The notes: a model not told the origin generated them from the letters alone. A DNA stretch of 64,000 nucleotides from a bacterium (GCA_021780535.1 JAJXYN010000011.1:15295-79294); one strand, 5' to 3'. Numbered from the stretch's first letter, positions 3 to 55,063 are shown. Program-made: numbers and translations.

Positions 3-155
3 TTTTGGGAGTATTGGACTTATAACAAATTCTTTGTTAAAGTTTTGGGCTATAATATCAGCTTTTTTATTTATGATAATTGGATTATTTGTTGTTGGAT
101 ATGTTAGAAAAAGAATGAAAATAGAAAGCGAGAAAAACGATAAAATTGAATTTTA
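3..155 (+). CDS. 3' end of a hypothetical membrane protein (partial at window edge)
   Basis: Open frame from the window start to TAA at 153-155. The hydrophobic C-terminus is ...FWAIISAFLFMIIGLFVVGYVRKRMK. Confidence 0.3.
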
Positions 156-38546: not shown

Positions 38547-38576
38547 TAAACTAAAATATATATTTTAACGTTTTTT

Positions 38577-38634
38577 AATTTTATTGTGTAAAACTAGGCA
38601 AATAAATAATTTGACTGATACAATAAATTGACAA
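38577..38634 (+). repeat. partial copy (3' promoter part) of the accessory-cassette promoter repeat
   Basis: AATTTTATTGTGTAAAACTAGGCAAATAAATAATTTGACTGATACAAT. Confidence 0.5.
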
Positions 38635-38724
38635 AAATGAATACTATGATAAAATAATAATACTTACTATTGGTAGGGCATAGCTTAAGCGTTAGTACTT
38701 AATTCAGACCCCCAGATAAAAATA

Positions 38725-39228
38725 CTACGATTTTGTCGTAGTATTTTTGTTTTCTAAAAATTTACAATCATTTAAAAAAATTAAAAATTTATTAGGGGTA
38801 ACTGTTTTTAATAACATAGAAAGCTTTTTTCTATTTGGAATAATTAATTTATAAAATTTATTATTTGATATTAGATATTTAACAATGCAATCAAAATCAC
38901 CATCGCCAGTAACTACGATACATTTATTATAAATATTAAAATAAATCATAATATTTAAAATCATTAAAGAATCTACATTTCCTTTTATTTTACCATTATT
39001 ATTTATTAAAATATTTTTAAAAACTAAGATATAACCAATGTTTTTTAAATATTCATATAAATTTTTATTTTTCTCAATAAAGCCAATAAATAAAAACATT
39101 TTATTTGATTTATATTTTTCTTTAAGATAAATATAAAATCTTTGATAATCTAATTTCCAACCAAGTTCCAACACACCTAGATTTAAATTTTGATTATCTA
39201 TAAAAGTATAGATAATTTCTTTTTCCAT
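38725..39228 (-). CDS. NYN/LabA-like (PIN-like) domain protein
   Basis: The VVTGDGDFDCIVKYL motif is characteristic of the NYN domain. A bidirectional hairpin terminator lies at its 3' end. Confidence 0.6.
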   Translation of the reverse strand: MEKEIIYTFIDNQNLNLGVLELGWKLDYQRFYIYLKEKYKSNKMFLFIGFIEKNKNLYEYLKNIGYILVFKNILINNNGKIKGNVDSLMILNIMIYFNIYNKCIVVTGDGDFDCIVKYLISNNKFYKLIIPNRKKLSMLLKTVTPNKFLIFLNDCKFLENKNTTTKS

Positions 39229-39262
39229 GTTTTGTTTTAAAATTAAACTATTACAAACATAT

Positions 39263-39389
39263 CAAACACTAAAACATGCAACATTAATTTCTATATTAAT
39301 TCTTTATTAATATTCCTAAATTTTGTTTTATATTAAATATTAATTTTATTGTGCAAAACTAGACAAATAAATAATTTGGCTGATACAAT
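39263..39389 (+). repeat. accessory-cassette promoter repeat, copy A
   Basis: CAAACACTAAAACAT...ATTAATTCTTTATTAATATT...AATTTTATTGTGCAAAACTAGACAAATAAATAATTTGGCTGATACAAT. Shared with 43538-43680 and 44287-44406, and more distantly 53893-53965. Confidence 0.55.
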
Positions 39390-39449
39390 TTATTGATTTT
39401 CGTGAAAAATGGGCGTAGAATTTGATATAAGATTTTTAATAAAATATAA

Positions 39450-40394
39450 ATGGCAAAAAAAATATTAGTTACAGGTGGAGCTGGTTTTGTTGGGTCACAT
39501 TTATGTAAAAGATTATTAGATGAAGGCAATGAGGTTGTTTGTTTGGATAATTTACAAACTTGTAGCAAAGAAAATATAAACGAATTATCATCTAATCCTA
39601 ATTTTACATTTGTATTACATGATGTAACTATTCCTTTTTGGACTAGGGTAGATGAAATTTATAATTTAGCTTGCCCGGCATCTCCTATTCATTATCAATT
39701 TAATCCTGTTAAAACTACTAAGACTTCTGTAATGGGTGCTATTAATATGTTAGATCTAGCTAGAGATAATAATGCCAGAATATTACAATCTTCTACTTCT
39801 GAAATTTATGGTGATCCTATGATTCATCCTCAACCAGAATCTTATTGGGGGAATGTAAATACCATAGGTATAAGATCTTGTTATGATGAAGGCAAAAGAT
39901 GCGCTGAAACTTTATTTTTTGACTACAATAGACAATTTAATACTAAAATTAGAGTTATAAGAATATTTAATACCTATGGTCCAAAAATGGCAGAGAATGA
40001 TGGAAGAGTTGTTTCTAATTTTATTATGCAGGCGCTTAAAAATGAAGATATAACAATATTTGGGACAGGTGATCAAACTAGATCGTTTCAATATATTGAT
40101 GATTTGATAGATGGAATGATTAAAATGATGAATAATGATAGAGATTTTATAGGTCCGGTAAATATTGGCAATCCTAATGAATTTACAATGAAAGAATTAG
40201 CGGAACTAATATTGAAATTAATTCCAGAAAGTAAAAGTAAAATAATTTTCAAAGACCTCCCACAAGATGATCCAAAACAGAGAAAACCTGTTATAGATCT
40301 AGCTAAAGAAAAATTAAATTGGGAACCAAAAATTAAATTAGAAGATGGTTTAAAGAAAACTATTGAATATTTTAGAGAAAAAATAAAAAAATAG
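39450..40394 (+). CDS. UDP-glucuronate decarboxylase (UDP-xylose synthase)
   Basis: GGAGFVGSH Rossmann fold, YxxxK catalytic pair, and a UXS-like [15 protein letters not shown] segment. Fits with ugd upstream. Confidence 0.8.
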
Positions 40395-40395
40395 A

Positions 40396-41394
40396 ATGAT
40401 TAAATATTCTTTTATAATTCCAGTAAAAGAAATAAATAATTACATCAAAGAATCTATTCCTAAAATATTAGAAATAGAAAGAAATGATTATGAAATTATC
40501 ATTTATCCAGATGAGATAGATAATAATTTTAATTCTCAAAAAACTAAACAAATAGCATCTGGTAATTGTGGACCAGCAGAAAAAAGAAGTTTAGCAATAA
40601 ATGATGCAAATGGAGAAATATTAGTATTTATTGATGATGATGCATATCCAGAAAAAAATTTACTAGATTTATTAGATAAAGATTTTGAGGATAAAAATAT
40701 TGTTGCTGTTGGTGGCCCAGCCATTACTCCAAGAAACGACGACTTTTGGCAGAAAGTTTCTGGTGCTGTATTTTTAAGCTCTATATCTGGTGGGAATCCT
40801 GAAAGATATATTTCTACTGGGAAGAAAAAATTTGTTAATGATTGGCCTTCTGTTAACCTATCTGTCAGAAAAAACGCATTTATTACTGTAAATGGATTTA
40901 ATAGTAAATACTGGCCAGGTGAAGATACTTTATTTTGTTTAGATTTATTAAAAAAAACTAATGGTAAAATATTATATGATCCCGATTTAATAGTTTATCA
41001 TCATAGAAGAAGTGGGTTTAAAAGACATTTAAAACAAATTGGACAATATGGATTACATAGGGGATTTTTTGCAAAAAAATATCCAGAAACATCTTTTAAA
41101 TTGAAATATTTTATACCTAGTATTTTTTTTGTGTTTGTCGTAAGTAGTATATTTTCTATATTTTTTAGTAATCTTTTATTGATTTTATATGGTATTGGGT
41201 ATATTTTATATATAGTTGCATTGATAAAAGCATTTTTAGATATTTATAAATACGAAACAAATATATTAATATGTATTAACGCTGCTTACTATATATTTTT
41301 TACTCATTTAATATATGGTTTTAACTTTATTAAAGGTTTTCTATTTACTAATGAATTAAAGAGTAAATTACGATCTACTGAATTAAAAAATTAA
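40396..41394 (+). CDS. GT2 glycosyltransferase with C-terminal transmembrane region
   Basis: GT-A N-terminus (FIIPVKE, DDD) and about 4 C-terminal TM helices. Confidence 0.7.
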   Translation: MIKYSFIIPVKEINNYIKESIPKILEIERNDYEIIIYPDEIDNNFNSQKTKQIASGNCGPAEKRSLAINDANGEILVFIDDDAYPEKNLLDLLDKDFEDKNIVAVGGPAITPRNDDFWQKVSGAVFLSSISGGNPERYISTGKKKFVNDWPSVNLSVRKNAFITVNGFNSKYWPGEDTLFCLDLLKKTNGKILYDPDLIVYHHRRSGFKRHLKQIGQYGLHRGFFAKKYPETSFKLKYFIPSIFFVFVVSSIFSIFFSNLLLILYGIGYILYIVALIKAFLDIYKYETNILICINAAYYIFFTHLIYGFNFIKGFLFTNELKSKLRSTELKN

Positions 41395-41403
41395 TCTACC
41401 AAA

Positions 41404-42924
41404 ATGAAAATAGCAATTTCTTATCCATCGTTAGAATCGGAAAAAGGTGTAGCATTACTTGGACAAAATCGTCAGTTCCAATGGTTTAATAGTCCTACTT
41501 ATATTTATCCTGTAATCCCGGCTTACACAGCAACATTATTAAAGCAAAATGGTTATGATGTTTTTTGGGATGATGGTATAGCTGAAGGATTGAATTATGA
41601 ATCTTGGAAAGAAAGATTTTTGAAAGAAAGTCCTGATGTTGTTATTTTTGAATCAAAAACCCCAGTGATAAAAAGACATTGGAGAATTATTAATGAATTA
41701 AAAGAATTAAGACCTGAAATAAAAATAATTTTAGTAGGTGATCATGTTACCGCATTCCCAGAAGAGAGTTTAAGATATTCTAAGGTTGATTATGTTTTAT
41801 CTGGTGGTGATTATGATTTTGGTGCTTTAAATTTAGTTAATTTTTTAGAAAATAAAGCTAATTTAGAGCCTGGTTGGTATTTTAGAGAATCCGGGGAATG
41901 GAATAAAGATTTGGAAAATGAAGACATTAATTGGGTTGATGGTGGCTTTGATAATTTAGTTATTAAAAATACTGGGGTAAAACAAGATTATCATCTACAC
42001 AACCTTGATACTCTTCCGATAGTTGATAGAGAATTAACTAAATGGAAATTGTACGCATTTAAAAATGGTAACTTTAAATACACTCCTGGTACATACATGA
42101 TGAGTGGTAGGGATTGTTGGTGGGGAAGATGTGCTTTTTGTTCTTGGACTACTTTATTCCCTGGAGCTAATTTTAGAACTAGATCTGCAAAATTAGCATT
42201 AGAAGAAGTTGGGCATTTGATAGATTTAGGTATTAAAGAAATCATGGAGGATTCTGGGTCTTTACCTATTGGACAATGGCTTATTGATTTTTGCAATGGA
42301 ATGATAGAAAAAGGATATAATACTAAAATTACGATGAGTTGTAATATGAGAATTAATGGTATTAAAGATCCTGAAACTTGGAAATTAATGAAGAAAGCTG
42401 GCTTTAGATTTGTTTTATTTGGTTTAGAATCCGCTAATCAAGAGACTTTAGACAGAATTGAAAAAAATCTTAAAATTGAAGAAATTGAACCTGGCCTTAA
42501 AATGTGTGAAAATGCTGGTTTAGAACCTCATATTACTACTATGATTGGTTACCCATGGGAAAAATATGGAGACGCTAAAAAAACTGTTGATTTAGCTAAA
42601 GATTTATTCAAAAAAGGGTATGTTGATACTTTGCAAGCTACTGTATTAATTCCTTATCCTGGCACGCCTTTATATAAATATTGTAAAGAAAATAATCTTT
42701 TGAATTTTAATGATTATGACAGATTTGACCAAAGAGAACAGGTTATGAAATGTGAATTAACTACTGAAAACGTTAAAGAATTAACTCAAGATTTATATAA
42801 GTCGTTTATTACTCCTAAATTTATTTTAAAGAAAGTCTTAAGTATAAGAAGTTTTGATGATGTAAAGTTTTTGTTCAAGGCTGCTTTTAAAGTTTTAGGA
42901 CATTTAATGGATTTTAAGAAATAA
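41404..42924 (+). CDS. B12-binding-domain radical SAM protein
   Basis: N-terminal cobalamin-binding-like Rossmann domain; cysteine cluster CWWGRCAFC (Cx4Cx2C) in a radical SAM core. Confidence 0.6.
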   Translation: MKIAISYPSLESEKGVALLGQNRQFQWFNSPTYIYPVIPAYTATLLKQNGYDVFWDDGIAEGLNYESWKERFLKESPDVVIFESKTPVIKRHWRIINELKELRPEIKIILVGDHVTAFPEESLRYSKVDYVLSGGDYDFGALNLVNFLENKANLEPGWYFRESGEWNKDLENEDINWVDGGFDNLVIKNTGVKQDYHLHNLDTLPIVDRELTKWKLYAFKNGNFKYTPGTYMMSGRDCWWGRCAFCSWTTLFPGANFRTRSAKLALEEVGHLIDLGIKEIMEDSGSLPIGQWLIDFCNGMIEKGYNTKITMSCNMRINGIKDPETWKLMKKAGFRFVLFGLESANQETLDRIEKNLKIEEIEPGLKMCENAGLEPHITTMIGYPWEKYGDAKKTVDLAKDLFKKGYVDTLQATVLIPYPGTPLYKYCKENNLLNFNDYDRFDQREQVMKCELTTENVKELTQDLYKSFITPKFILKKVLSIRSFDDVKFLFKAAFKVLGHLMDFKK

Positions 42925-43022
42925 TTTGACGAGATATTCTATTCTATGATATTATTTTAATATCACCATGATAGAGCATGTTTTTGGCTCCAATATTTGT
43001 CCAAAAAATACTCTCTATTAAT

Positions 43023-43048
43023 AAAAAACACCTTAACTGGTGCTTTTT
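43023..43048. terminator. bidirectional hairpin terminator
   Basis: AAAAACACCTTAACTGGTGCTTTTT, with A-run and T-run flanks on either side. Confidence 0.5.
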
Positions 43049-43119
43049 AATTTTAAAACTGAAAAATTCAAATTTAAAAACAATTTTAAAATCTAAATTT
43101 TAAAACATATAAAACATAG

Positions 43120-43476
43120 TTACTTAAGATTGTTGAATATCTTTGATAATATTAAATTTATTTCTCTTGCTTCTTTCCAGAATATTCTTAATTTTTCTTT
43201 ATTATCATCTTCATAATTAACTAGTATTTCTATCCAATATTCTGTTTCTTTCGCTTCTTTTCTTGATATTGCTATTTTGTTTCTAAAATCTTTTTTAGAA
43301 CAGCTATTATTAGCTTCTATATAGTTTGCACCAATAGAAGTTGAACATCTAAATAATTGATTTAATAAGGAATCTAAATCTTTATTAATATATTTATTTT
43401 CTTTTCTAATTTCTTTAATAAACAATATCAAATCTTTAATAAATAATTTAATTCTATCTTCAAGATCATATTTCAT
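43120..43476 (-). CDS. four-helix-bundle protein (23S rRNA IVS protein / Avd-like family)
   Basis: STSIGANYIEA...SKKDFRNKIAISRKEAKETEYWIEIL matches the TIGR02436-type four-helix-bundle family. Confidence 0.7.
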   Translation of the reverse strand: MKYDLEDRIKLFIKDLILFIKEIRKENKYINKDLDSLLNQLFRCSTSIGANYIEANNSCSKKDFRNKIAISRKEAKETEYWIEILVNYEDDNKEKLRIFWKEAREINLILSKIFNNLK

Positions 43477-43537
43477 AGTATTTGTTTTAAAATTTAAATT
43501 TTAATATTTAGATTTGTTTTGAATTTTGGTTTTTTTA

Positions 43538-43680
43538 GTTTTAAAATTTCTACTATACCAAACACTAAAACATACAACATTAATTTCCATATTAATTCTT
43601 TATTAATATTTTTAAATTTTGTTTTATATTAAATGTTAATTTTATTGTGCAAAACTAGATAAATAAATAATTTGACGAAT
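43538..43680 (+). repeat. accessory-cassette promoter repeat, copy B
   Basis: GTTTTAAAATTTCTACTATACCAAACACTAAAACATACAACATTAATTTCCATATTAATTCTTTATTAATATTTTTAAATTTTGTTTTATATTAAATGTTAATTTTATTGTGCAAAACTAGATAAATAAATAATTTGACG. Confidence 0.6.
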
Positions 43681-43699
43681 TTTTAGAATTTGATATAAT
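43672..43699 (+). promoter_or_regulatory. sigma70-like promoter TTGACG-16-TATAAT
   Basis: TTGACGAATTTTTAGAATTTGATATAAT. The same TAGAATTTGATATAA box recurs at 39415-39430. Confidence 0.45.
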
Positions 43700-43702
43700 A
43701 TT

Positions 43703-43868
43703 TAATATAAATTCCTTCGGGACTACAAAGATGTTTAACATCTTTGGGAAAAAGCTTTTATTGAATTATGTCCATAAAAGTTTACAACAATGGCTTCGGC
43801 CCTCCCTCTAGTTAATTCTAGTAGGGTAAAAATTGAAAAACTACGCAATTAATTTGCGTAGTTTTTCT
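43703..43868 (+). ncRNA. candidate small RNA (promoter-to-terminator unit) converging on the MazF-like gene
   Basis: Starts downstream of the 43672 promoter. Contains CCTTCGGG and the perfect hairpin CAAAGATG-TTTA-ACATCTTTG, and ends at terminator hairpin CTACGCAATTAATTTGCGTAG plus T-run. Confidence 0.25.
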
Positions 43869-44233
43869 TTTATTATTTTGAAATCTTCTATTTTTATATA
43901 TCCATTTAAATATTTTAATCTTTTACTATCTATTATTCTCAATTGTGATAACATTGCTGTACTTTCTATGTCTTTTATATAATTAAACTTATGATAGAAT
44001 TTATTTTCTTGTTTTTTTGATGAAGTTAATGGTATTCCAAAAAATAATCTATCATTAAATTTTTTTAATATTAAAACTGGTCTCAAAAATGATTTATTAT
44101 CACCATTTTGTTCAAAACCTATGTTTAACCCTAAAAAACAAAACCAAATTTCTCTTTCATGAAAAAATACATTATGTTCTTTTTTATTTAACTCTGATTT
44201 TTTATTGTGCCAATTTAAAATTTCTTTTTCCAT
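43841..44233 (-). CDS. MazF/PemK-family toxin-like protein (orphan)
   Basis: REIWFCFLGLNIGFEQNG...RPVLILKK...IPLTS...SQLRIIDSKRL parallels Kid/PemK (EIWLVSLDPTAGHEQQGTRPVLIV...VPVTS...RTID). Confidence 0.65.
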   Translation of the reverse strand: MEKEILNWHNKKSELNKKEHNVFFHEREIWFCFLGLNIGFEQNGDNKSFLRPVLILKKFNDRLFFGIPLTSSKKQENKFYHKFNYIKDIESTAMLSQLRIIDSKRLKYLNGYIKIEDFKIIKEKLRKLIA

Positions 44234-44286
44234 GTTTATTTAGTTTTAGTTTCTTTGTACTTCGAAGCTTTAGCGAAGAAGTATCA

Positions 44287-44406
44287 GTTTTAAAATTTCT
44301 ACTATACCAAACACTAAAACATACGACATTAATTTTTATATTAATTCTTTATTAATATTTTTAAATTTTGTTTTATTCTAGTTAATATCCAAATTGTGCA
44401 TAAAAG
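44287..44406 (+). repeat. accessory-cassette promoter repeat, copy C
   Basis: The 5' two-thirds are near-identical to copy B; the 3' part diverges. Confidence 0.55.
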
Positions 44407-44474
44407 ATAATTAACATTGATTTTATAATTAAATAAGGGTAGAATTTCTGTATTGATTTTTTTAAAGAATAAAA

Positions 44475-45371
44475 ATGAATAACTCTTTAGTTTCTGTTAC
44501 TATTACAACTAAAAATGAAGAGAAGAATATAGAAAATTGTATTAAATCAATATTTGGACAAACTTATAAAAATATTGAAATTATTGTAGTTGATAATAAT
44601 TCTTCTGATAAAACAAAAGAAATTGCATTAAAATATACAGATAAAGTTTTTGACAAAGGGCCTGAAAGGTCTGCTCAAAGAAATTATGGAATGATAGAAA
44701 AAAGCAATGGGGAATATGCTATGTTTATTGATGCGGACATGATTTTATCACCTGATGTTATAGAAAATTGTATTAAATTAACAGAAACTGAAAACATTGA
44801 TGCATTATGGATTCCTGAAATAGTTCTTGGAAATAATTTCTTTTCAAAATGTAGAAGATTTGAAAGAACTTTTTATAATGGAACAGTGATAGACGGAGCT
44901 AGATTTTTTAAAAAAAGTTCTTTTATTGAAGTTGGCGGTTTTGATATAACTATGAGTGGACCAGAGGATTGGGATATTGATAAAAAGCTAAAAGCTAAAA
45001 ATTTTAAATTAAAACTTTTAGAGACTGACGTATTAAATAAGAATAGTTGGGTATTGTATGAGTTCATAAAAGAAAGGGGTGTTAATTCTAATAAATATGG
45101 TTCTGTTATATATCATAATGAAGCTGACTTTAATCTTAAAAAGTATTTGAATAAAAAGGGATATTATGCTAAAAGTTTTGATGGATATATTAGTAAATGG
45201 GGTAAAGATGATAATGATATAAAAAAGCAATTTGGATTGAGTTATAGATATTTTGGTGTTTTTCTTGGAAATGGTAAATGGAAAAGATTATTATCTCATC
45301 CGATATTAGCTATTGGAATGTATTTTTTGAGATTTTTAGTTGGTGTTAGTTTTTTAATTAATAAAAAGTAA
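44475..45371 (+). CDS. GT2 glycosyltransferase
   Basis: N-terminus VSVTITTKNEEKNI...IEIIVVDNNSSD, a DAD motif and GT-A fold. Confidence 0.7.
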   Translation: MNNSLVSVTITTKNEEKNIENCIKSIFGQTYKNIEIIVVDNNSSDKTKEIALKYTDKVFDKGPERSAQRNYGMIEKSNGEYAMFIDADMILSPDVIENCIKLTETENIDALWIPEIVLGNNFFSKCRRFERTFYNGTVIDGARFFKKSSFIEVGGFDITMSGPEDWDIDKKLKAKNFKLKLLETDVLNKNSWVLYEFIKERGVNSNKYGSVIYHNEADFNLKKYLNKKGYYAKSFDGYISKWGKDDNDIKKQFGLSYRYFGVFLGNGKWKRLLSHPILAIGMYFLRFLVGVSFLINKK

Positions 45372-46400
45372 ATGAATAATCAATTTGATTTAAAATTTAG
45401 TATATTAATACCGACATATAAAGGTGCTGGCTTAATAAAAGAAACATTGGAAAGTATATTATCTCAAAGTTTTTATAATTATGAGATAATAATTCAAGAA
45501 GATGCATCTGACGATAATATAGAAGATGTTATAAAAAATTATAATGATAGTAGAATAAAATTTTTTAAAAATAATAAAAATTTAGGATATTCTATAAATT
45601 TAGAAGAAGGTAGAAAACATTGTACTGGAGATATAATATATTTAATGGGGCAAGATGATATTTTGGCAGAGAGTGCATTAATAAATACGTATAATGTATT
45701 TATAGAACATGATGATGTAGGTGCTGTTACTAGGCCATATTATTGGTTTGATAAAGATATAAAAATACCAGTTAGAGCTAAAAAACAATTAAATAGCAAA
45801 AAAGATGAAATTATAAAAATTGATGATGATATAGAAAAAATTATAAATGTATTTGAAACATTAGATCAACTTTCAGGATTGGCTTACAGAGTAAAATTTA
45901 TGGATATAGGATTTCATCCAGATTGTTTTCCTTGCCATATTTATCCATTCGCATCAATCTTTAAAAAACACTCTATAGCATTTCTTAAAGACTACACTAT
46001 TGCTGTAAGAATAAGTAGTAGTCAAACAAGAAATATATCTTCTATATATGAAAGATCTCCAATGCTTAGCTGGATAGACATGTTTAATAATGTTTTCAAA
46101 GAAGATAAATTCATAAAAACAAAAGATAAATGTATTAAAAATTTTGTTACTATAAATTATATTGGTCTTGTCCAGTTAAGAAATTATGCAAGATATTTTT
46201 TGTTTTTAAGAGAATCTTGGTATTTAATTAAATATCATTGGCAAAATATTTTTAATATAAAATATTGGTTTTTTGCTTTAGGGTGTGCTATTATGCCAGC
46301 AAAATTATTAATACCATTAGTTGATTGGTATAAAAATAAAATAAATTCTGCTAATTTAAAATATATAAAGTTTAATTATAAATTTAAACATAATGAATAA
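45372..46400 (+). CDS. GT2 glycosyltransferase
   Basis: N-terminus FSILIPTYKGAGLI...YEIIIQEDASDDN and a DD motif. Confidence 0.65.
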   Translation: MNNQFDLKFSILIPTYKGAGLIKETLESILSQSFYNYEIIIQEDASDDNIEDVIKNYNDSRIKFFKNNKNLGYSINLEEGRKHCTGDIIYLMGQDDILAESALINTYNVFIEHDDVGAVTRPYYWFDKDIKIPVRAKKQLNSKKDEIIKIDDDIEKIINVFETLDQLSGLAYRVKFMDIGFHPDCFPCHIYPFASIFKKHSIAFLKDYTIAVRISSSQTRNISSIYERSPMLSWIDMFNNVFKEDKFIKTKDKCIKNFVTINYIGLVQLRNYARYFLFLRESWYLIKYHWQNIFNIKYWFFALGCAIMPAKLLIPLVDWYKNKINSANLKYIKFNYKFKHNE

Positions 46401-47070
46401 AATTATAACTTATTTACATAATTATCCTTTTTTTACTAAAATTTTTCATACTTTAAATTATTGTTTAAAAAATGAGTTAAAAGATTGCCAAACTGTATTA
46501 GATTTGGGTTGTGGTCCTGATTCTCCTTTAAAATATTGTAAAAATATTAAATATAGTGTCGGCGTTGAAGGTTTTGAACCATATCTAGAGAAATCAAAAT
46601 CTAACAATATACATTCTGAATATATTTCAAAAAATATAATGGAATTAGATTTTCCAGAAAACTCATTTGATGCCGTTATTATGATAGAAGTATTAGAACA
46701 TTTACCAGAAAATGTTGGTTATGAAATTGTTAAAAAAATGGAAAAATGGGCAAAAAAGAAAATTATTATATCATCACCAAATGGTTTTATAAATCAAAAA
46801 GAAGTGGATAACAACCCACTACAAAAACACTTATCTGGTTGGGATTATAAAAAAATGGAAAAATTAGGTTTTAAATGTTATGGGTTAGCTGGTTTTAAAT
46901 TTCTAAGACAAGAAGTACAAAACGATACAATGAGTAACAATTTATTAACATCAATAAGATTTAAACCTAAAGCTTTTTGGTTTATTATTGCTACTTTAAG
47001 TCAAATTTTTACCTATCATTTCTCCGGATTAGCATTTGAATTGTTTAGCGTTAAAAAATTAAAAAAATAA
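46393..47070 (+). CDS. class I SAM-dependent methyltransferase
   Basis: Motif I VLDLGCGPDSPL and post-I acidic residue; overlaps the previous gene by 8 nt. Confidence 0.65.
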   Translation: MNKIITYLHNYPFFTKIFHTLNYCLKNELKDCQTVLDLGCGPDSPLKYCKNIKYSVGVEGFEPYLEKSKSNNIHSEYISKNIMELDFPENSFDAVIMIEVLEHLPENVGYEIVKKMEKWAKKKIIISSPNGFINQKEVDNNPLQKHLSGWDYKKMEKLGFKCYGLAGFKFLRQEVQNDTMSNNLLTSIRFKPKAFWFIIATLSQIFTYHFSGLAFELFSVKKLKK

Positions 47071-47071
47071 T

Positions 47072-47776
47072 ATGAAGTTTTTTAGAAAGTATTTTTTGTA
47101 TTTATTGGAATTAAGCACTAAGAAAAATTTAAGAAATATAATAGATTTTTTAGATAAAAAAGAATCTTGTAATTTTCTAGATTTAGGATGTAATGACGGT
47201 GTTGTTACTTTAAATTTTGCTAAAAAAATAGAAACTAAAAATATATATGGCGTTGAAATTGTTGATAACGCAATTGCCATTGCTGAAAGTAATGGAATTA
47301 AGGTTTTTAAAGCTGATTTAAATTTAAAATTACCATTCGAGGATTCTTATTTTTATTTTATAACAGCTAATCAGGTTATAGAGCATCTTAATAATACGGA
47401 TAATTTTATTTCTGAGATACATAGAATTTTAAAGCCCGGTGGATATGCTATTATTAGTACGGAAAATCTTGCTAGTTGGCATAATATTTTTTCTTTATTA
47501 CTTGGATTTCAACCATTTAGTATTACTAATTATTCAAATAAGGGTGTAATAGGTAATCCTTTTTCTTTATGGAAACAAAACAAATACGATGACAATACTC
47601 TTTCTTGGCAACATCAAAAAATATTTTCGTATTTTGGATTAAAAGATTTATTTATTAAAAATGGATTTTCTGTAATAGCTATTAAGACTAGTGGATATTA
47701 TCCTTTACCTGGTTTCTTTTCTGATATAGACAAAATACATGGTCATTGGCTAACGATAAAAGTGCAAAAATTATAA
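47072..47776 (+). CDS. class I SAM-dependent methyltransferase
   Basis: Motif I FLDLGCNDG, motif II ITANQVIEHL, and LKPGGYAII. Confidence 0.7.
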   Translation: MKFFRKYFLYLLELSTKKNLRNIIDFLDKKESCNFLDLGCNDGVVTLNFAKKIETKNIYGVEIVDNAIAIAESNGIKVFKADLNLKLPFEDSYFYFITANQVIEHLNNTDNFISEIHRILKPGGYAIISTENLASWHNIFSLLLGFQPFSITNYSNKGVIGNPFSLWKQNKYDDNTLSWQHQKIFSYFGLKDLFIKNGFSVIAIKTSGYYPLPGFFSDIDKIHGHWLTIKVQKL

Positions 47777-47800
47777 TATAATCTAATAAAATTTAAATTT

Positions 47801-48337
47801 ATGAATATTTTTTTTAAAATTATATTATTCATAATTTCTATTCCAGCGAGATTAAAAGGAATGAAATTTGGAGTAAATAGTTATATTTTGCCAGGATATG
47901 ATGTGTTATTTAATCAAATGAAAAACATAAATTTAAGTAATAATGTTGTTATTGGAAGAAATGCATGGATTCAAACCATAGAAAATGGGGAAATAATTAT
48001 CAATAACAATACTCATATAGGTAGGAATGTTGTAATTTCTTCTAGGGGTAATATAGTAATAGGAAATGAATGTATGATATCTTATTTTGTTTCAATTTTA
48101 GACCATAATCATGATTTTTACAATATTAATAAATCCCCAATTTTTAGCGGGTTAACTAACCCCAAAAATATTTCAATAGGCGATAAAACTTTTATTGGAG
48201 CTCATTCTTTTATAATGCCTGGCGTTAAATTAGGGAAAAATTGCGTTGTTGGTGCTAATAGTGTAGTAACCAAAAGCTTTGAAGATTATAGTATTATAGC
48301 TGGAAATCCAGCAGTTTTAATAAAAAAAATAGTTTAA
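47801..48337 (+). CDS. hexapeptide-repeat (left-handed beta-helix) acetyltransferase
   Basis: Repeated [LIV]GxxxxI hexapeptides ([34 protein letters not shown]), as in maltose/galactoside O-acetyltransferases. Confidence 0.75.
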
Positions 48338-48340
48338 TGT

Positions 48341-49234
48341 ATGAATAAAAAAATTTCAGTAATTATAGTTACTTATAATAGAAAAAATGACGTAGACTTA
48401 TGTTTACAGTCTATTTTTAATAGTACATATAATAATTATGAAATTATTGTTGTTGATAATGCGTCTGAAGACGACACGGTTATGTTTTTAGAAAATAAAT
48501 ATTCTAATAGCATAAACTTAATAAAAAGCCCAGTAAATTTAAATGCTGGGGGTGGTAGAAATTTGGGAGCGAAAAATGCTAGTGGAGATTATTTTTTGTT
48601 TATAGATAGTGATAATGTTATAGATTTTAATATGATAAATGAATTATATTTAGAAATTGAGAAAGGTAATAATTGTGGGATGATAGGGCCATTGATGTAT
48701 TATTATGAAAAAAAAAATATTATATGGTTATCTTTTGCCAATATAAATATGTGGACTAGTAAGTCAAAATATGAAGGGAATCTTGAAGAAGACAAGGGGC
48801 AATATAATCTTGTTAGAGAAACTGGCCATTTGCCTAATGTTTTTATGGTTAGAAAAAATATTTGGGAATTGGTTAATGGGATAGATGAAATATATGGAAT
48901 TATGTACGAAGAATCAGATTTAGCTGAAAAAATAAAAAAAATTGGATATAAAATATTAATAACTCCAAAAGCAAAAACATATCACAATACTCCTATGTCT
49001 TATAGCAAAGATTTGGAGTTTAATAATAAAAGATTTTATTATACAACTAGAAATAGAATAATATTTATGAGAAAAAATGCGACAAAAATACAATTATTTG
49101 TTTTTTATTCGATATTTATGCATGTTTTAAATTTTTATTATTTTATAAATATACTTAAATTTGGGAAATTAAATATAATTTCAACTTTTTTTTCAGCAAT
49201 TAAAGATGGTGTAACCATAAAAATAGAAAAATAA
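48341..49234 (+). CDS. GT2 glycosyltransferase
   Basis: N-terminus ISVIIVTYNRKNDV...YEIIVVDNASEDDT and a DSD motif. Confidence 0.75.
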   Translation: MNKKISVIIVTYNRKNDVDLCLQSIFNSTYNNYEIIVVDNASEDDTVMFLENKYSNSINLIKSPVNLNAGGGRNLGAKNASGDYFLFIDSDNVIDFNMINELYLEIEKGNNCGMIGPLMYYYEKKNIIWLSFANINMWTSKSKYEGNLEEDKGQYNLVRETGHLPNVFMVRKNIWELVNGIDEIYGIMYEESDLAEKIKKIGYKILITPKAKTYHNTPMSYSKDLEFNNKRFYYTTRNRIIFMRKNATKIQLFVFYSIFMHVLNFYYFINILKFGKLNIISTFFSAIKDGVTIKIEK

Positions 49235-49246
49235 GTAAAAAATAAT

Positions 49247-51889
49247 ATGATGTTTTATAAAAAAATTAATTTAAAAAAAATACTTATATTTATTGTATGC
49301 TTTTTTGTAATATTTCTATCAAGATGGAAATTATTTTTAAATAGTGGAGTAATAGGCCATAATTGGGATTGGTCAATACCATTATTGAAAAGTTCTAATT
49401 TAGAATTATTTAACCAAGGGAAATATATTTGGAATACTTTTTTTCTTGGCGTTTCGGATATTTTTTTTAGATTTTGGAATTTTTATTTGCATTTTTTAGG
49501 AATATTTTTAGGTGGTGAATTTTTATCTAAATTCATTATATTTTTTATATTAAGTTGTGGATTTTTGTCGTTTTATTTTTTTATAAAATTTTTTATAAAA
49601 AAAGTAATCAATTTTGATTATAATAAAGAAAAAGAGGATTATTTATTGTTCATAATCCCATCATTGTTATATGTTTTAAATCCTTTTATTTTTAATGATA
49701 TTATATCAGGAAGTCTTATATATCTTATAGCGTACTCCTTATTACCATTAACTTTACTATTTTTTATAAAATATATATATACTAATAAATTTAAAAATGT
49801 TATATATTTTTCATTTGTAATATTTTTTGTTTCTGGATCAACCCAAATGTATATATTTTCTATTATTTTATGCTTTTCTTTTTTAATTTATTATTTTTTT
49901 AACAAAAAATCTATATTAAATGGATTTAAAATTTTTTCTTTTTCTCTTTTAATAATTTCTATTCTGTTAATTCCTTTGTTATATAATAGTATTAATTTAC
50001 AAAAAACTACTTATTCTAAAAGAGCTAGTGCTAATACTGCAGTTCAAAAATACAGTAATCAGTTTTTAAATACACAACAAAACATATTAAGATCTTTTAC
50101 CTTGGAATCTTTTTTAGATAGAAACATTTTTTCGCATTTTTTAATTATACCATATTATTTTATATTTTATTGTTCTATTTTTTTATTAATAATAATAAGT
50201 ATATTTTTTGTTATTAATAACAAAAAATTAAGTAAAAAAAATATTATATTTGTTTTGCTATCATTTATTATCTCCATAACCGTTGTATCAATTTCTAAAA
50301 ATCCAATTACGGGTAATATGTTTCTATGGTTAATGGATAATTTTATCCCAGCAAGAGCTTTTAGCACAACTTATCATCTTGTATTTTTCTCAACATTTTC
50401 AACCTGTTTATTAATTAGCTTTGCTTTATTAAATCAAAACAAAAAATACTATGCTGTATTTATTGTTTTAATCATGTTAATTAATATTCAAGTTTTTGTA
50501 TTTGGAGATAATGGCATAAATATTTTAAAAAATCAAAAAAGAGATAGCATTGATCAATATTATCCAAACAATGAATTTATAAAATATTCCCTAGCTACTA
50601 ATCTAAAAAAACTTGATTATAGAATGTTATCAATACCAATGTCATATTCTCCTTATTATTTAAAAACAAAAAATCAAAACTATGGACAAGGCGGAGACCC
50701 TGATTTATTAACATTAAAACCATCAACATTTGAAAATTTTGTAAACACATCATACGTACTAGAAAAGGATTTGTTATATAATAAAAACGTAAATAATAAT
50801 TTATATTCATTATTTAATTTTAGAGATTTTATAATTAAAACTGATGTTGTCAGTAATTTTTCAAATTATAAAAATGATTATGATTACTCAAAATTAATTA
50901 AAAAATTTGAAAACAATATGCTATTTAAATCAAAATATTTTAATAATGGTGAATTTAATATTTTTCTTCAACACTTCTACACCCCCCAAACTATCATAAA
51001 ATCATCTCAAAATATCAGCGTATTGCCAGATATTGTTTCTCAAAATGATTATAACATTCGTTCTGCTACTTATTTTTCTGATAATACTTACAATGCTGAC
51101 GATAAATCTGTTTTTAACCCTAACGCTATTACGAAGACTGAAGTTAAAAATACTCCTACTATTGAATTTAAAAAAGTTAATCCTACTAAATATAAAGTTA
51201 TTATTCATGATGCAACTTCTGAATTTCCATTGATATTCTCTGAATCGTTCCATGATGGGTGGAAAGCATATTTAACTTCATCAAATAATTTAAAAACTGA
51301 AAAAACCAAAATTCAAAACGAGGAAATATTAAAAAATTATAAAATATTGGATGGGAATAGTGATGATCAAGCTTCTATTGACGAACTTAAGAGTTATATT
51401 GATAAAGGCTATATTTCTTCTTTGGGTGATTTGAAACAAAAAAATATTAAACATGTTAAATGGGATAATAATAAAGAGGTTTTTGATTATAATGAACCTT
51501 ATAAGATAGACTTTATTTCTAAAGATTTTAACGGCACTATTCAAAACGATAATCTTGACAGTGGCCATTTCTATGAAACTTGGTCAAAAACTCCTATTAG
51601 CGACTCTAATCATTCTATGGTTAATGGTTATGCTAATTCTTGGAATATTGATCCTAATAGTATTTGCAATAATAATTCTAAATGCACTAAGAATGCTGAT
51701 GGTAGTTATGACATGGAATTTACTATTGAATTTTGGCCTCAAAGATTATTCTATCTTGGTTTAATAATTTCCGGTACTACACTAATCGGTTGTATTGTTT
51801 ATTTGATTGTTGATGGTGTTAAAAATAAGAAAAAGAAAGAAGAAGAAAAAGAAAATAATAATCATGACCTAATTTCATATTTTGATTAA
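49247..51889 (+). CDS. large polytopic membrane protein (about 13 TM) with C-terminal extracytoplasmic domain
   Basis: 880 aa; N-terminal multi-TM region followed by a roughly 450 aa soluble domain. The architecture resembles GT-C-type glycosyltransferases or polymerases (inference only). Confidence 0.45.
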   Translation: MMFYKKINLKKILIFIVCFFVIFLSRWKLFLNSGVIGHNWDWSIPLLKSSNLELFNQGKYIWNTFFLGVSDIFFRFWNFYLHFLGIFLGGEFLSKFIIFFILSCGFLSFYFFIKFFIKKVINFDYNKEKEDYLLFIIPSLLYVLNPFIFNDIISGSLIYLIAYSLLPLTLLFFIKYIYTNKFKNVIYFSFVIFFVSGSTQMYIFSIILCFSFLIYYFFNKKSILNGFKIFSFSLLIISILLIPLLYNSINLQKTTYSKRASANTAVQKYSNQFLNTQQNILRSFTLESFLDRNIFSHFLIIPYYFIFYCSIFLLIIISIFFVINNKKLSKKNIIFVLLSFIISITVVSISKNPITGNMFLWLMDNFIPARAFSTTYHLVFFSTFSTCLLISFALLNQNKKYYAVFIVLIMLINIQVFVFGDNGINILKNQKRDSIDQYYPNNEFIKYSLATNLKKLDYRMLSIPMSYSPYYLKTKNQNYGQGGDPDLLTLKPSTFENFVNTSYVLEKDLLYNKNVNNNLYSLFNFRDFIIKTDVVSNFSNYKNDYDYSKLIKKFENNMLFKSKYFNNGEFNIFLQHFYTPQTIIKSSQNISVLPDIVSQNDYNIRSATYFSDNTYNADDKSVFNPNAITKTEVKNTPTIEFKKVNPTKYKVIIHDATSEFPLIFSESFHDGWKAYLTSSNNLKTEKTKIQNEEILKNYKILDGNSDDQASIDELKSYIDKGYISSLGDLKQKNIKHVKWDNNKEVFDYNEPYKIDFISKDFNGTIQNDNLDSGHFYETWSKTPISDSNHSMVNGYANSWNIDPNSICNNNSKCTKNADGSYDMEFTIEFWPQRLFYLGLIISGTTLIGCIVYLIVDGVKNKKKKEEEKENNNHDLISYFD

Positions 51890-51891
51890 AT

Positions 51892-52010
51892 GCTTTTTTA
51901 TAAAATAGGGTAGAGATACTCTATTTTAGTTTAATTCTTTAGTTTTTTAGTTTTGAATTTTATTTTTATTTGACGTATTATTATTTTTTGATATAATTTA
52001 AATAATAACG
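51892..52010 (+). repeat. direct repeat DR1 (terminator-like hairpin plus TTGACG-16-TATAAT promoter)
   Basis: Near-identical to 52741-52859: CTTTTTTATAAAATAGGGTAGAGATACTCTATTTTAGTTTAATT...TTTATTTGACG(T/G)ATTATTATTTTTTGATATAATTTAAATAA. Confidence 0.65.
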
Positions 52011-52098
52011 AGACGCCCGGGACAAATTCCAGGGGAAAAGATATTTCGTAAGATTTATCTACTGGGCTGTCTGGCCACCTTTGATGGTGGCTTTTTTA
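52004..52098 (+). ncRNA. candidate roughly 95 nt small RNA, cis-antisense to the 3' end of the DUF3800 gene
   Basis: TTGACG (51970-51975) and TATAAT (51992-51997) with a 16 nt spacer. Then a GC-rich segment CGAGACGCCCGGGACAAATTCCAGGGG...CTGGGCTGTCTGG ending in terminator GGCCACC-TTTGA-TGGTGGC plus TTTTTT. Confidence 0.3.
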
Positions 52099-52654
52099 GT
52101 TCTATAACTTTATATTTTAATATTTTTTTTAATATAATATTTAAATCATTGTCTAATTTATTTTCATTATCAAAATAATATCTAAAAAAACCTGCGATAT
52201 AATCAGCAATTTTTATACCTATAGAATTATTATCTTTTATGGTTCTTATTTTACTTATAGATACATTTCTATCTCTAAAGTATTTTTTAATTTTTCTATC
52301 ATATTTTTTGGATTTTTTACCATCAATAAAAACATAATTATTCTTATCATTTTCAATAAAATCAATTAAAGAGCTTTCTAATTCTTTTTCTTGATTTATT
52401 GGGTTTATTAATATTTTTATTTTAAAATTTACTTTTTGATCTGCTATTTCTTGTAAAACTCTTTTCTTAACATTCCAATTATCCTCACTCCAATGAAATG
52501 ATTTGATTTTTAATATCTTTTCTAAATCAATAATTATCTTTTCTATAAAAACATAATTATCTTCATTTATAAACACAAAAGCAAAACACGAATACTTTAT
52601 ATCTTTATTTACACCAGATTCATCTATAAATATATAAGTTTTTTCTTTTTCCAT
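52055..52654 (-). CDS. DUF3800 domain protein
   Basis: N-terminal YIFIDESG and C-terminal IKIADYIAG motifs are typical of DUF3800. The last 13 codons read through the GC-rich + strand terminator hairpin. Confidence 0.6.
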   Translation of the reverse strand: MEKEKTYIFIDESGVNKDIKYSCFAFVFINEDNYVFIEKIIIDLEKILKIKSFHWSEDNWNVKKRVLQEIADQKVNFKIKILINPINQEKELESSLIDFIENDKNNYVFIDGKKSKKYDRKIKKYFRDRNVSISKIRTIKDNNSIGIKIADYIAGFFRYYFDNENKLDNDLNIILKKILKYKVIELKKPPSKVARQPSR

Positions 52655-52740
52655 TTTTTATAATTAATCATTAATCTATTTATTATAGACTACTTATTAA
52701 TAAATGGCTAATATTAGAATATTAATTAAGAATTAATTAA

Positions 52741-52859
52741 CTTTTTTATAAAATAGGGTAGAGATACTCTATTTTAGTTTAATTTTTTAGTTTTTTAGTT
52801 TTGAATTTTATTTTTATTTGACGGATTATTATTTTTTGATATAATTTAAATAACAATGC
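52741..52859 (+). repeat. direct repeat DR2 (copy of DR1)
   Basis: Its TTGACG-16-TATAAT promoter fires antisense into the 3' end of the second MazF-like gene and is followed by CCTTCGGG. Confidence 0.65.
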
Positions 52860-52936
52860 CTTCGGGCCCCGAGATTTCAATATTTATTTATTGATTTCGC
52901 ATATATAAAAGCAGTCAGAAATGGCTGATTTTATAT

Positions 52937-53323
52937 TTAAAACATTAACTCTCTTAGTCTTTCTTTTAATAGGGCAAAATCATCTTTTGATATATATCCT
53001 ATTTTTCTATCTATTCTTTTTGAATCTATTAATCTTATTTGAGAAAGAATTGCAAATGATTTTTTATTTAAAAATACAAATTCAAAATGATATTTATCTT
53101 TATTAACTTTACTCGTAAGTGGAATACAGACAAAAATTCTATTATTAAATTTTTTTAAAATTAAAACTGGCCTTTCAAATTCAAAACCACCACCATTTTG
53201 TTCAAAACCTATATTTTTACCTAGATTAACAAAACAAATTTCTCTTTCTTTATAGAACACTATTTTATCCTTATCTTCTATTTTCTTTTTTAGACTATTC
53301 CATTTATCAAATTCTTTTTCCAT
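52937..53323 (-). CDS. MazF/PemK-family toxin-like protein (orphan paralog)
   Basis: Paralog of 43841-44233 (EREICFVNLGKNIGFEQNG...RPVLILKK...IPLTS...SQIRLIDSKRI). Its 5' leader and first four codons are identical to those of the DUF3800 gene. Confidence 0.65.
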   Translation of the reverse strand: MEKEFDKWNSLKKKIEDKDKIVFYKEREICFVNLGKNIGFEQNGGGFEFERPVLILKKFNNRIFVCIPLTSKVNKDKYHFEFVFLNKKSFAILSQIRLIDSKRIDRKIGYISKDDFALLKERLRELMF

Positions 53324-53344
53324 TTTTTATAATTAATCATTAAT

Positions 53345-53842
53345 CTATTTATTATTTCTATCCCCATTCCACATTTTTGGATTATTGATAATATAACGTT
53401 TTATTTTTAAATATTCTATTTCGTTACGAATTATATGATCATGAAATGATTTTTGCCATTTGAAATAATATGGTTTTATTTTATTGATTTCACGGGATGC
53501 AGACGATTTAAATAAACCAATGATTAATGATAATAATTGATTATTACGTTCCCGTAGGTGCCAGATTAATCTGGCACCTACATCACAATTTTTATTTATT
53601 TCAAAAATAAAATGTAAATGATTCGGCATTATACAATATTCATGTATTATTATTGTTTTATGAAAATTTTCTATATTTAATATTTTATTTTTCACAATTA
53701 TACCAATATTGTTTAAAATCATTTTATCGTTTTCAATATTTCCAAAATATGGATATCTATCACCAGTGCATATTGTAATAAAATAAAATCCATTATTTGA
53801 ATAATTCCATTTATTCCATCTGTTATTCTTATTTTGATACAT
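53345..53842 (-). mobile_element. IS200-like Y1 (HUH) transposase of the REP-associated tyrosine transposase (RAYT) type
   Basis: HUH motif MPNHLHFIF, GLFKSSASREIN, and C-terminal FKWQKSFHDHIIRNEIEYLKIKRYIINNP (WQ..FHDH.IR.E...YI..NP, the RAYT signature). A 28 bp perfect palindrome sits inside the ORF at 53554-53581. Confidence 0.7.
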
Positions 53843-53892
53843 ATTTTATTTAAACATTTTTTAACCAAATAAATATATCAAAATACTAAATA

Positions 53893-53965
53893 TTCTATAT
53901 TAATATTTCTATTAATTTTAGATTAATATTTCTAAATTTTGTTTTATCTTAAGTATTAATTTTAT
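53893..53965 (+). repeat. accessory-cassette promoter repeat, diverged copy D
   Basis: TTCTATATTAATATTTCTATTAATTTTAGATTAATATTTCTAAATTTTGTTTTATCTTAAGTATTAATTTTATTGTGTAAAAAG. Confidence 0.4.
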
Positions 53966-54123
53966 TGTGTAAAAAGATTTATCTTTGTTAAAATTTCGAC
54001 TGATGAAGTATGACGGTAATATTCTATTTTATTTTTATTTGACGGATTATTATTTTTTGATGAAATTTTTTTATTTATATTACGTAATATATAATTATAC
54101 AACCTAATACCAATGGAGGGGTT

Positions 54124-54534: not shown

Positions 54535-54648
54535 ACTCATATTTATGTTGTACAAAAAATAGTTGCCCATATTTGTTATGGGCATTTTTATTTTAAAATA
54601 AAAAAAGACGCCATTGTTATTGGCGTCATCTGTTAAATCCTTACGGGT

Positions 54649-54822
54649 TTAATCCCTTCGGATTCCGTGTTCTTCAAAGGCGTCAAACGGCTTGAAATCC
54701 GTTTCGATCGTCTGGTTGGCCCCGTTGTCGCCGTCAATGTTTGCCGGCGCAGGCTTTGCGCTTTCGTCTTTTTTTTCCGTTTTGGACACTTTGTCCCTGT
54801 CCCTGTTCATAGTGATCATTGA
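54649..54822 (-). CDS. small acidic, low-complexity protein encoded in a GC-rich mini-island (57 aa)
   Basis: GGGAGGTG RBS before ATG 54822 and an intrinsic terminator 54601-54630 on the minus strand. Local GC is far above the genome background. The ORF-track start at 54885 is probably too long. Confidence 0.35.
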   Translation of the reverse strand, partial: SMITMNRDRDKVSKTEKKDESAKPAPANIDGDNGANQTIETDFKPFDAFEEHGIRRD

Positions 54823-55063
54823 CACCTCCCAAAAAAAGATGAATATCAGTATAACAGCGAATTTGTTTAAATGCAATAGTGCCAATTTTTTAAAAATGAT
54901 ATTATTGCTTTATTTTTATACACAATTATTTTATTTTCCTATTTTAGATATTATATTTATATATTAATTAGATTTTAATTTGTTTGTTAATTATCAATTA
55001 ATTTGATTAATTTTATTATAAATATTAGAATTAGATTTATTCTTAATCAATTTTTGGTATGTA

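Follow-up and report, generated by a model that had tools for sequence, protein, structure and literature searches.

Why is a bacterial glycan locus broken up by small genes of the opposite strand, and why do the strongest promoters of its own strand point at these genes? The question was raised by GCA_021780535.1 JAJXYN010000011.1:15295-79294, a stretch of 64 000 nucleotides that was analysed as a whole and is called the window here (positions are counted from its first letter). Six small minus-strand genes interrupt its plus-strand glycan locus. A first-pass annotation, made by a model from the sequence, had identified them as NYN, four-helix-bundle, two MazF-like, DUF3800 and REP (repetitive extragenic palindrome)-associated tyrosine transposase (RAYT) genes; Pfam agrees, and all six calls lie above the Pfam gathering score. 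The answer reached is that the region contains four two-gene modules (NYN, PemK1, DUF3800 and PemK2), in which a minus-strand ribonuclease-type gene is accompanied by a plus-strand structured RNA gene. Three of the modules are well supported and the NYN module is less so.

The G+C content of the window is about 25%. Relatives of the small proteins are annotated as Pacebacteria, Gracilibacteria, Parcubacteria, Peregrinibacteria and similar groups; the source is therefore taken to be a bacterium of the Patescibacteria/candidate phyla radiation (CPR). Identical window proteins are also encoded in GCA_021833805.1 (contig JAKBEM010000101.1, locus L001; exact-protein match).

Convergent RNA genes and their protein partners

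The best plus-strand promoter matches with an extended -10 element (TTGACN-16..18-TAnnnT) lie at 38628, 42926, 43672, 51970 and 52818. None of the five precedes a glycan gene. Behind every one come 60-130 nt that are richer in G+C and then a hairpin terminator that adjoins, or takes in, the stop codon of the following minus-strand gene. The cassettes had been read as single genes; for DUF3800 and both PemK genes, and less securely for NYN, the unit is instead a protein gene with a small RNA gene convergent on it and a terminator common to the two. In the proposed arrangement the RNA gene would have its own near-consensus promoter, run toward the protein gene and end in a terminator shared by both transcripts, with the stop codon of the protein gene predicted inside or next to the terminator stem. 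Folding z-scores of the candidate RNAs in the window (-3.6 to -4.6) include the terminators and so were not used as evidence.

The DUF3800 gene (52055-52654, minus strand) encodes 199 residues (PF12686, 1.6e-8), and the DUF3800 fold is RNase-H-like (PMC10910872, PMC7736814). A DUF3800-II RNA (Rfam RF02961) was found opposite it at 52005-52076 (plus strand). The Rfam covariance model matches over its full length (1-69 of 69) and scores 64.5 bits (gathering score 43.2; E = 4.7e-11). The RNA adjoins the PF12686 gene in convergent orientation, about 20-40 nt of its 3' part are shared with the end of the DUF3800 coding sequence and its terminator lies at 52073-52092; score and position alike place it in the DUF3800-II family. 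Eleven unrelated RNA structures (DUF3800-I to -XI), several with terminators, were tied to DUF3800 genes by Weinberg et al. (2017), who noted features of sophisticated function and found no functional hypothesis apparent (PMC5737381). The modules described here resemble these motifs in that a small structured RNA with its own terminator is tied to one protein family outside a 5' untranslated region, and in that one protein family can have different RNA structures, as NYN does here. They differ in that the design extends to PemK/MazF, and less securely to NYN, inside a shared repeat frame, and in that the PemK RNA is a separate, apparently uncatalogued family. The DUF3800 module is a known family; the extension of the DUF3800-style design to PemK, and probably to NYN, is new.

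PemK1 (43841-44233, minus strand; 130 aa; PF02452, 2.2e-8) and PemK2 (52937-53323, minus strand; 128 aa; PF02452, 1.3e-12) are PemK/MazF-family endoribonuclease genes, and the two PF02452 scores in the window are 48.3 and 34.7 bits (cut-off 23.1). PemK2 is distantly similar to solved MazF structures. Its relatives comprise at least 478 protein clusters from CPR bacteria and at least 582 confirmed metagenomic loci. No protein antitoxin gene lies next to either gene in the window, the upstream neighbours being a repeat (R, described below) and the RAYT-like gene. In 63 loci with enough upstream sequence, no MazE-like family recurs; short co-directional open reading frames (ORFs) that end near the PemK start have no mutual similarity.

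The RNA was followed through 80 metagenomic loci encoding relatives of the window PemK proteins, which with the two window genes gave 82 sequences. A strict convergent promoter (TTGACN-15..18-TAnnnT) faces the PemK 3' end and is followed by the same RNA in 47 of the 82. The order of elements is UACAAAUG, a stem P1 (GGCUUCGGCC and variants) with a UUCG-type loop, CGA, a stem P2 that often has a GNRA loop, GUAA and the terminator. The conserved unpaired nucleotides (UACAAAUG, the CGA linker and GUAA) lie outside the overlap with the gene. A covariance model (R1) was built from 23 majority-class sequences; MAFFT with RNAalifold on all PemK RNAs gave only P1, because the length of P2 varies. R1 matched 69 sites, two in the window and 67 in about 60 of the 80 metagenomic loci, and all are on the strand opposite PemK. 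The core ends between -10 and +46 nt (median 7) from the PemK stop codon in 64 of the 67 metagenomic sites, and the terminator therefore overlaps the last codons.

Covariation was evaluated on this set. The share of cells that pair, 98.8%, is inflated by the fitting of the alignment to the model. All ten pairs have compensatory double changes (150 cells), and these are also plain in the unfitted MAFFT alignment. None of 500 shuffles reached the observed values, and slid controls paired in 38-59% of cells. Predicted RNA-mRNA overlap is limited to the shared terminator and the last codons, and the RNA core pairs with the PemK start region no more strongly than shuffled sequences do (mean z -0.6). 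A permissive Rfam 15 search of the window region and 15 related loci returned no family for the PemK or NYN RNAs, and no description of the PemK RNA was found in the literature, for which coverage was incomplete. The PemK-facing RNA appears to be a new, undescribed family.

The PemK1 module has two tandem RNA copies behind the promoter TTGACG-16-TATAAT (43672-43699, plus strand; promoter scan). Copy 1 (43703-43755, plus strand) consists of 5' AUAAAU, P1 UCCUUCGGGA and a P2 hairpin (30.8 bits with R1, E = 7e-4); copy 2 (43780-43834, plus strand) consists of ACAACAAUG, P1 GGCUUCGGCC and a P2 hairpin (22.3 bits, E = 0.07). Both have the features of the PemK RNA family. The bidirectional terminator hairpin common to the RNA and PemK1 (43835-43867, both strands) holds the PemK1 stop codon in its stem. 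The PemK2-facing RNA (52846-52935, plus strand; terminator 52912-52927) is a variant of the family with AUAACAAUG, P1 GCCUUCGGGC and a long AU-rich P2. Though unreached by R1, it fits the family features by inspection and by conservation in L084, L085, L086 and L004 (L numbers denote related loci), which includes one compensatory change in P1 (G-C to A-U).

The NYN-domain (LabA-like) ribonuclease gene (38725-39228, minus strand; 167 aa; PF01936, 4e-10) belongs to a large, mostly CPR family; no relatives of the protein were found in a viral collection. It is faced by the promoter TTGACA-16-TAAAAT with an extended -10 element (38628-38655, plus strand; 11/12 matches, TG present) and by a candidate small RNA (38660-38750, plus strand), the body of which spans about 38660-38717 and the bidirectional terminator hairpin of which (38718-38750) contains the NYN stop codon. 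In all four independent lineages (the window, L019, L097/L098 and L087/L090) the NYN gene faces a convergent TTGAC(A)-TAnnnT promoter. The RNAs themselves vary: L019 and L097 share AUCACCAnCGnAAAAG and a long hairpin, while those of the window and L087 are each different. The NYN-RNA pairing is plausible.

Two local features of these genes were also recorded. The NYN and PemK1 terminators (38718-38750 and 43835-43867) are of one design, an A-run, CTACG, a loop, CGTAG and a T-run with the stop codon CTA in the stem; CTACG..CGTAG hairpins occur only at these two gene terminators in the window. Two populations, L087 and L090, encode an identical NYN protein and differ by a tandem duplication of 58 nt (L087 2013-2115 compared with L090 2013-2057), in which the 3' end of the NYN gene is repeated immediately past the convergent promoter.

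The repeat frame and the exchange of modules

A repeat of about 110-170 bp, R, lies 5' of the NYN, PemK1 and RAYT-like genes and of the four-helix-bundle gene, which encodes a 23S rRNA intervening-sequence protein (IVP). Full copies are at 39208-39396, 43504-43680, 44253-44423 and 53824-53994, with a right-half copy at 38551-38631; core identity among the full copies is 69-91%. The earlier description of these copies holds, and its coordinates agree to within about 30 nt. Core patterns of R gave 4-5 matches against 0.08-0.4 expected from shuffles, all within 38.5-54.1 kb, and no copy was found elsewhere in the 64-kb window. The 24-base R core had one match in 185,579 reference genomes, a chance match in a coding region of a Micrarchaeota metagenome-assembled genome; the source species is evidently unrepresented there. 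R is lineage-private, not a generic promoter.

A minus-strand extended -10 element (TGnTATnnT) is present in every R copy. In the copy 5' of NYN (39229-39396) it is TGATATGTT at about 39256-39264, followed by an ATTAAT array (39283-39311) and TTATTGTGCA. The copy 5' of IVP (43541-43680), conserved in L084, has TGGTATAGT at 43552-43560 and its array at 43579-43607; that 5' of PemK1 (44288-44400), a left half only, has TGGTATAGT at 44301-44309 and its array at 44328-44356. The copy 5' of RAYT (53870-53975), with TGATATATT, is the most diverged (69-78% in the core). The right-half copy (38551-38631, plus strand) forms with 39316-39396 a direct repeat of 81 nt and 80% identity around the NYN module. 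All nine ATTAAT-N5-6-ATTAAT arrays in the 64 kb lie 5' of small minus-strand genes. These include DUF3800, the flank of which is in other respects not of the R type. Hexamer arrays with a spacing of about 12 nt were located at 39283-39311, 43579-43607, 44328-44356, 52721-52737 and 53899-53927, and they may represent a common operator or UP-like element.

A second repeat, D2, carries the RNA promoters of the other two modules. Copy 1 (DR1; 51893-52008, plus strand) includes the terminator of an 880-aa gene, the promoter TTGACG-16-TATAAT (51970-51997) and the very start of the RNA. Copy 2 (DR2; 52741-52856, plus strand) is 97% identical to it over 116 nt and has its promoter at 52818-52845, identical in L084. 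In the partial copy 3 (53962-54077, plus strand), TTGACGGATTATTATTTTTTGATGAAAT precedes a 136-aa plus-strand ORF at 54124. At the opposite end, the DUF3800 leader with the first four codons (52643-52686, minus strand; 44 nt) is 100% identical to the PemK2 leader (53312-53355, minus strand), which overlaps the RAYT stop codon. The common leader and the DR1/DR2 bracketing, both reported before, are real. DUF3800 and PemK2 are unrelated RNA-plus-protein cargos with closely matching ends (97% identity in the RNA-promoter repeat, 100% in the leader), and such different cargo between near-identical ends is a signature of cassette replacement in a conserved frame. R and D2 are inter-module regions, each made up of a small-gene promoter/leader, an ATTAAT array and a plus-strand promoter.

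The plus-strand promoters of these regions occupy homologous positions, with TTGACA/TTGACG and a good -10 element before an RNA and TTGATT-17-TAGAAT before a glycan gene. The latter type was found at 39393-39421 (plus strand), before an epimerase/dehydratase gene at 39450, and at the homologous, aligning position 44417-44445 (plus strand), before a GT2 gene at 44475. These two R copies plausibly restart glycan-gene transcription after the bidirectional terminators. The repeat had been described as a bidirectional promoter that restores transcription of downstream glycosyltransferase genes; it does have promoter-like elements on both strands, and two copies do precede glycan genes, but the plus-strand TTGAC/TATAAT promoters are mostly predicted to drive convergent small RNAs.

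It could be argued from these homologous positions, occupied before RNA and glycan genes alike, that a strong promoter region has simply been duplicated or spread by gene conversion; the repeats and plus-strand promoters would then serve mainly to insulate the glycan operon around the opposite-strand genes and to start it anew, with the RNAs as by-products. The RNA-like stretch at 42962-43046, which is an orphan and is not conserved in L084, fits such an account. The PemK RNA does not: it covaries across about 60 unrelated loci, whatever lies beyond it, and DUF3800-II is an independently curated family. We consider this explanation very improbable.

The same modules and repeats occur with other neighbours in L084, L085 and L086. 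The R-IVP unit of L084 is joined to a PemK2-type module instead of PemK1 and is preceded by a different plus-strand gene, and the PemK2 module of L085 lies beside HicA-type genes. Other PemK modules adjoin NYN, IVP, RAYT or further PemK modules (up to three in tandem) with lineage-private flanks, and private flanks are also shared by tandem PemK modules in many RAYT-free loci. Shared flanks would let whole RNA-plus-protein cargos be swapped by homologous recombination. An AT-rich segment at 54913-55005 precedes a 578-aa gene (at 55003). It has about 81% identity to sequence 5' of the L085 PemK module (L085 705-797) and is, judged by this similarity, probably another flank element common to the relatives. 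In independent assemblies of the strain (L107-L110, L001 and L002), the breaks tend to fall in or beside the repeats and small modules, which is consistent with repeats that are multi-copy in the genome.

The gene to which mobilization had been attributed is an IS200-like Y1/REP-associated tyrosine transposase-like gene (RAYT-like; 53345-53842, minus strand; 165 aa), directly upstream of PemK2. It scores 26.5 bits with PF01797 (Y1_Tnp; cut-off 23) and 65.5 bits with the curated model NF047646, below the cut-off of 80. It lies between the 32-nt leader of PemK2 and an R copy, whereas in L085 and L086 the PemK2-type gene retains the full upstream region that precedes DUF3800 in the window; the RAYT-like gene therefore looks inserted into that promoter region. 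No inverted repeat flanks 53345-53842, and no REP palindrome family was seen there, the only CTACG..CGTAG hairpins of the window being the two terminators described above.

The first-pass annotation pictured single-gene cassettes, each with its bidirectional promoter repeat, that had entered the glycan locus and could be mobilized by the RAYT. In its favour the repeat is real and lineage-private, two copies do place TTGATT-17-TAGAAT before glycan genes, direct repeats of 81 nt stand on both sides of the NYN module, and modules are found in other contexts in relatives, which suits a family of portable, recombining cassettes. Against it, the cargo is an RNA-plus-protein pair, the RAYT model score is below cut-off, neither the RAYT nor the cassettes have a REP-like hairpin family at their flanks, a RAYT adjoins PemK in one of 80 other loci, RAYT-free tandem PemK loci share private flanks, and assemblies of the same strain lack polymorphism. 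Re-assortment of the modules thus speaks for the mobile part of this account, and the part played by the RAYT finds no backing; taken as a whole we consider it improbable. An integron is not indicated either: the repeats are promoter/leader regions at the 5' ends of genes, and no integrase was found among the ORFs scanned, which were part of the ORFs of the window.

A possible function of the RNAs

All protein partners that have an RNA belong to nuclease families. The modules are proposed to be RNase-plus-RNA toxin-antitoxin (TA)-like pairs, in which an abundant structured RNA would keep its cognate RNase harmless. The RNA would most likely bind the RNase directly as a pseudo-substrate, in the manner of type III systems, and the complementary 3' ends may add antisense control. 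We regard this RNA-antidote model as an even call. In retrons, a partner that contains nucleic acid keeps the effector in check. Within the model, direct binding is somewhat more likely than pure antisense action because the mRNA-complementary region includes neither the conserved unpaired nucleotides nor the two hairpins, because these do not pair with the start region, because three unrelated nuclease families use one design, and because ToxN is structurally related to Kid and MazF (PMC3401426) and DUF3800 serves as the effector of type VII retrons as well (PMC7736814).

Compared with type II MazEF/PemIK systems, the modules have a PF02452 protein with distant similarity to solved MazF structures; they differ in that no antitoxin gene lies upstream of it or overlaps it, the only conserved neighbour being the convergent RNA. 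Type III systems (ToxIN, CptIN and TenpIN) are alike in combining an endoribonuclease that has no protein antitoxin with a structured RNA, which is constitutively transcribed, and the tandem copies of PemK1 recall their arrays (PMC3401426). The differences are several. The type III RNA is a tandem repeat array upstream on the same strand with a terminator between array and gene, whereas the RNA here is downstream, on the opposite strand and usually single-copy; only PemK1 has two copies, and what lies upstream is repeat R or a leader. The RNA has a two-hairpin fold and not a known pseudoknot. The proteins belong to PF02452, PF01936 and PF12686, and no ToxN-type family appeared in the Pfam or PADLOC output.

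Convergent toxin mRNA and small RNA with a bidirectional terminator are the arrangement of several type I systems, namely par of pAD1 (Fst/RNAII) and txpA/RatA and bsrG/SR4 of Bacillus, the toxins of which are small membrane peptides. The modules have this layout as predicted from sequence, and the strict convergent overlap points to some contribution from antisense action or interference, for which par of pAD1 is a parallel. Antisense control could indeed be all there is: the complementary 3' end and shared terminator would act by transcriptional interference or by RNase III cleavage of the mRNA, and the 5' domain would merely stabilize the RNA. All 67 metagenomic R1 sites are convergent, 64 of them within about 50 nt of the stop codon with the terminator over the coding end, and the DUF3800-II RNA likewise overlaps its gene by about 20-40 nt. 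What this alternative leaves unexplained is the conserved structured domain outside the overlap, with its near-invariant unpaired nucleotides and two covarying hairpins (UUCG and GNRA loops), and the RNA core that does not pair with the PemK start region. In addition, DUF3800-I RNAs are reported to vary in both the side and the strand on which they accompany their gene (PMC5737381), and classical type I toxins are hydrophobic peptides of less than about 60 aa (PMC3401426), against soluble nuclease-domain proteins of 128-199 aa here (enzymes of 130-200 aa in round figures). Antisense control by itself seems unlikely.

The RNA might instead be a ribonucleoprotein partner, a cofactor, guide, scaffold or dedicated substrate in defence or RNA processing, for example, of a protein that is non-toxic alone. 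Its strongly conserved single-stranded positions would suit such a role. The DUF3800-associated RNAs were rated as sophisticated, with no hypothesis as to function (Weinberg et al., 2017; PMC5737381), and TPR-DUF3800 proteins accompany Cas12a2 and Cas12a3 loci. PemK/MazF proteins, though, are well-established growth-inhibiting RNases that lack a protein antitoxin here, and with one design in three unrelated nuclease families generic neutralization is simpler than three cofactor roles. A partnership of this kind is quite unlikely.

Several observations weigh against the RNA-antidote model. Its antidote function is predicted from sequence, as are expression, toxicity and binding. The strict convergent overlap is not required of a trans-acting, protein-binding RNA and fits antisense control at least as well. 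The window PemK RNAs are weak or variant matches to their family (30.8 and 22.3 bits, and PemK2 beyond the reach of R1), and the fitting of the covariation alignment flatters the pairing. The NYN-facing RNAs differ by lineage, and that of the window is without comparative support. IVP and RAYT stand in the same frame with no supported RNA partner, so that the RNase-plus-RNA rule is not universal here. Other assemblies of the strain, encoding identical flanking proteins, have an identical layout; the presence/absence polymorphism that had been expected of the cassettes was not seen among them, and this weighs against recent mobility. The cargo had also been likened to that of defence islets, and PADLOC called no defence system in the window, giving only a weak match to the NYN domain.

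The consequences can be stated in general terms. MazF and PemK are the textbook protein-neutralized type II toxins, and a CPR subfamily that has no protein antitoxin carries a conserved, covarying RNA at a fixed position. The PemK RNA suggests that RNA-based neutralization is wider than the three type III families. NYN and PemK genes of the same design stand side by side in one locus, and the modules are small and self-contained (promoter, RNA, terminator and gene). If the model is true, a classical type II toxin family has exchanged its protein antitoxin for an RNA, in a distinct TA architecture, and the DUF3800 RNA motifs, left with no hypothesis in 2017, gain a function. The widest form of the proposal, in which convergent structured RNAs would act directly as antitoxins of three or more unrelated nuclease families (PemK/MazF, NYN and DUF3800) in CPR bacteria and the pairs would be exchangeable as cassettes through shared flanks, is put forward tentatively and with less than even confidence. 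For annotation, such RNA genes would explain apparently orphan toxins and strong outward-facing promoters across CPR genomes, as well as assembly breaks at these loci.

The IVP gene, the glycan locus and its surroundings

The IVP gene (43120-43476, minus strand; 118 aa; PF05635, 1.4e-15; TIGR02436) is bracketed by an inverted repeat of 70 nt, 76% complementary, with one arm 3' of the gene (43049-43118) and its partner 5' (43479-43548). The predicted duplex is significant against shuffled sequence, with z = -7.5 for the window and -9.6 for L084. ORFs of intervening sequences in 23S rRNA are likewise bracketed by a stem. IVPs of that family (PF05635/TIGR02436) are related to the Avd proteins of diversity-generating retroelements. 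The present gene differs in that it is not in an rRNA gene, and its bracket is significant only in the window and L084; such a stem was not significant in the two distant IVP loci L033 and L025, nor around any other small gene.

The IVP gene is faced by a promoter (TTGACG-18-TATTAT), an 85-nt hairpin-rich stretch and a terminator (42926-43046, plus strand), an orphan or unsupported RNA. The candidate IVP partner (42962-43046) was rejected: it is absent in the close relative L084, and L033 has no convergent promoter. The unit at 42926-43046 may be the orphan RNA half of a module from which the protein gene was lost or displaced by the IVP element.

The genes tested 5' of 34 kb are housekeeping genes (PBP2, a class II aminoacyl-tRNA synthetase and an M50-family, RseP-type protease). 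The plus-strand glycan locus begins at 34.4 kb with ugd and continues with GT2 genes, an epimerase/dehydratase, a B12/radical SAM protein, two methyltransferases and a hexapeptide acetyltransferase. Its content is broadly as first annotated, with the exception of the GT2 count, for which five genes were verified and seven had been claimed.

Downstream of the last module, at 54600-54860, lies an island of about 250 bp with a G+C content of about 48%, in a genome of 25% G+C. Terminator-like hairpins are found at 54564-54584 and 54607-54627. The island contains a 56-aa minus-strand ORF (54649-54819; a gene call in L001) with no Pfam or NCBIfam match, and could be a foreign gene or RNA.

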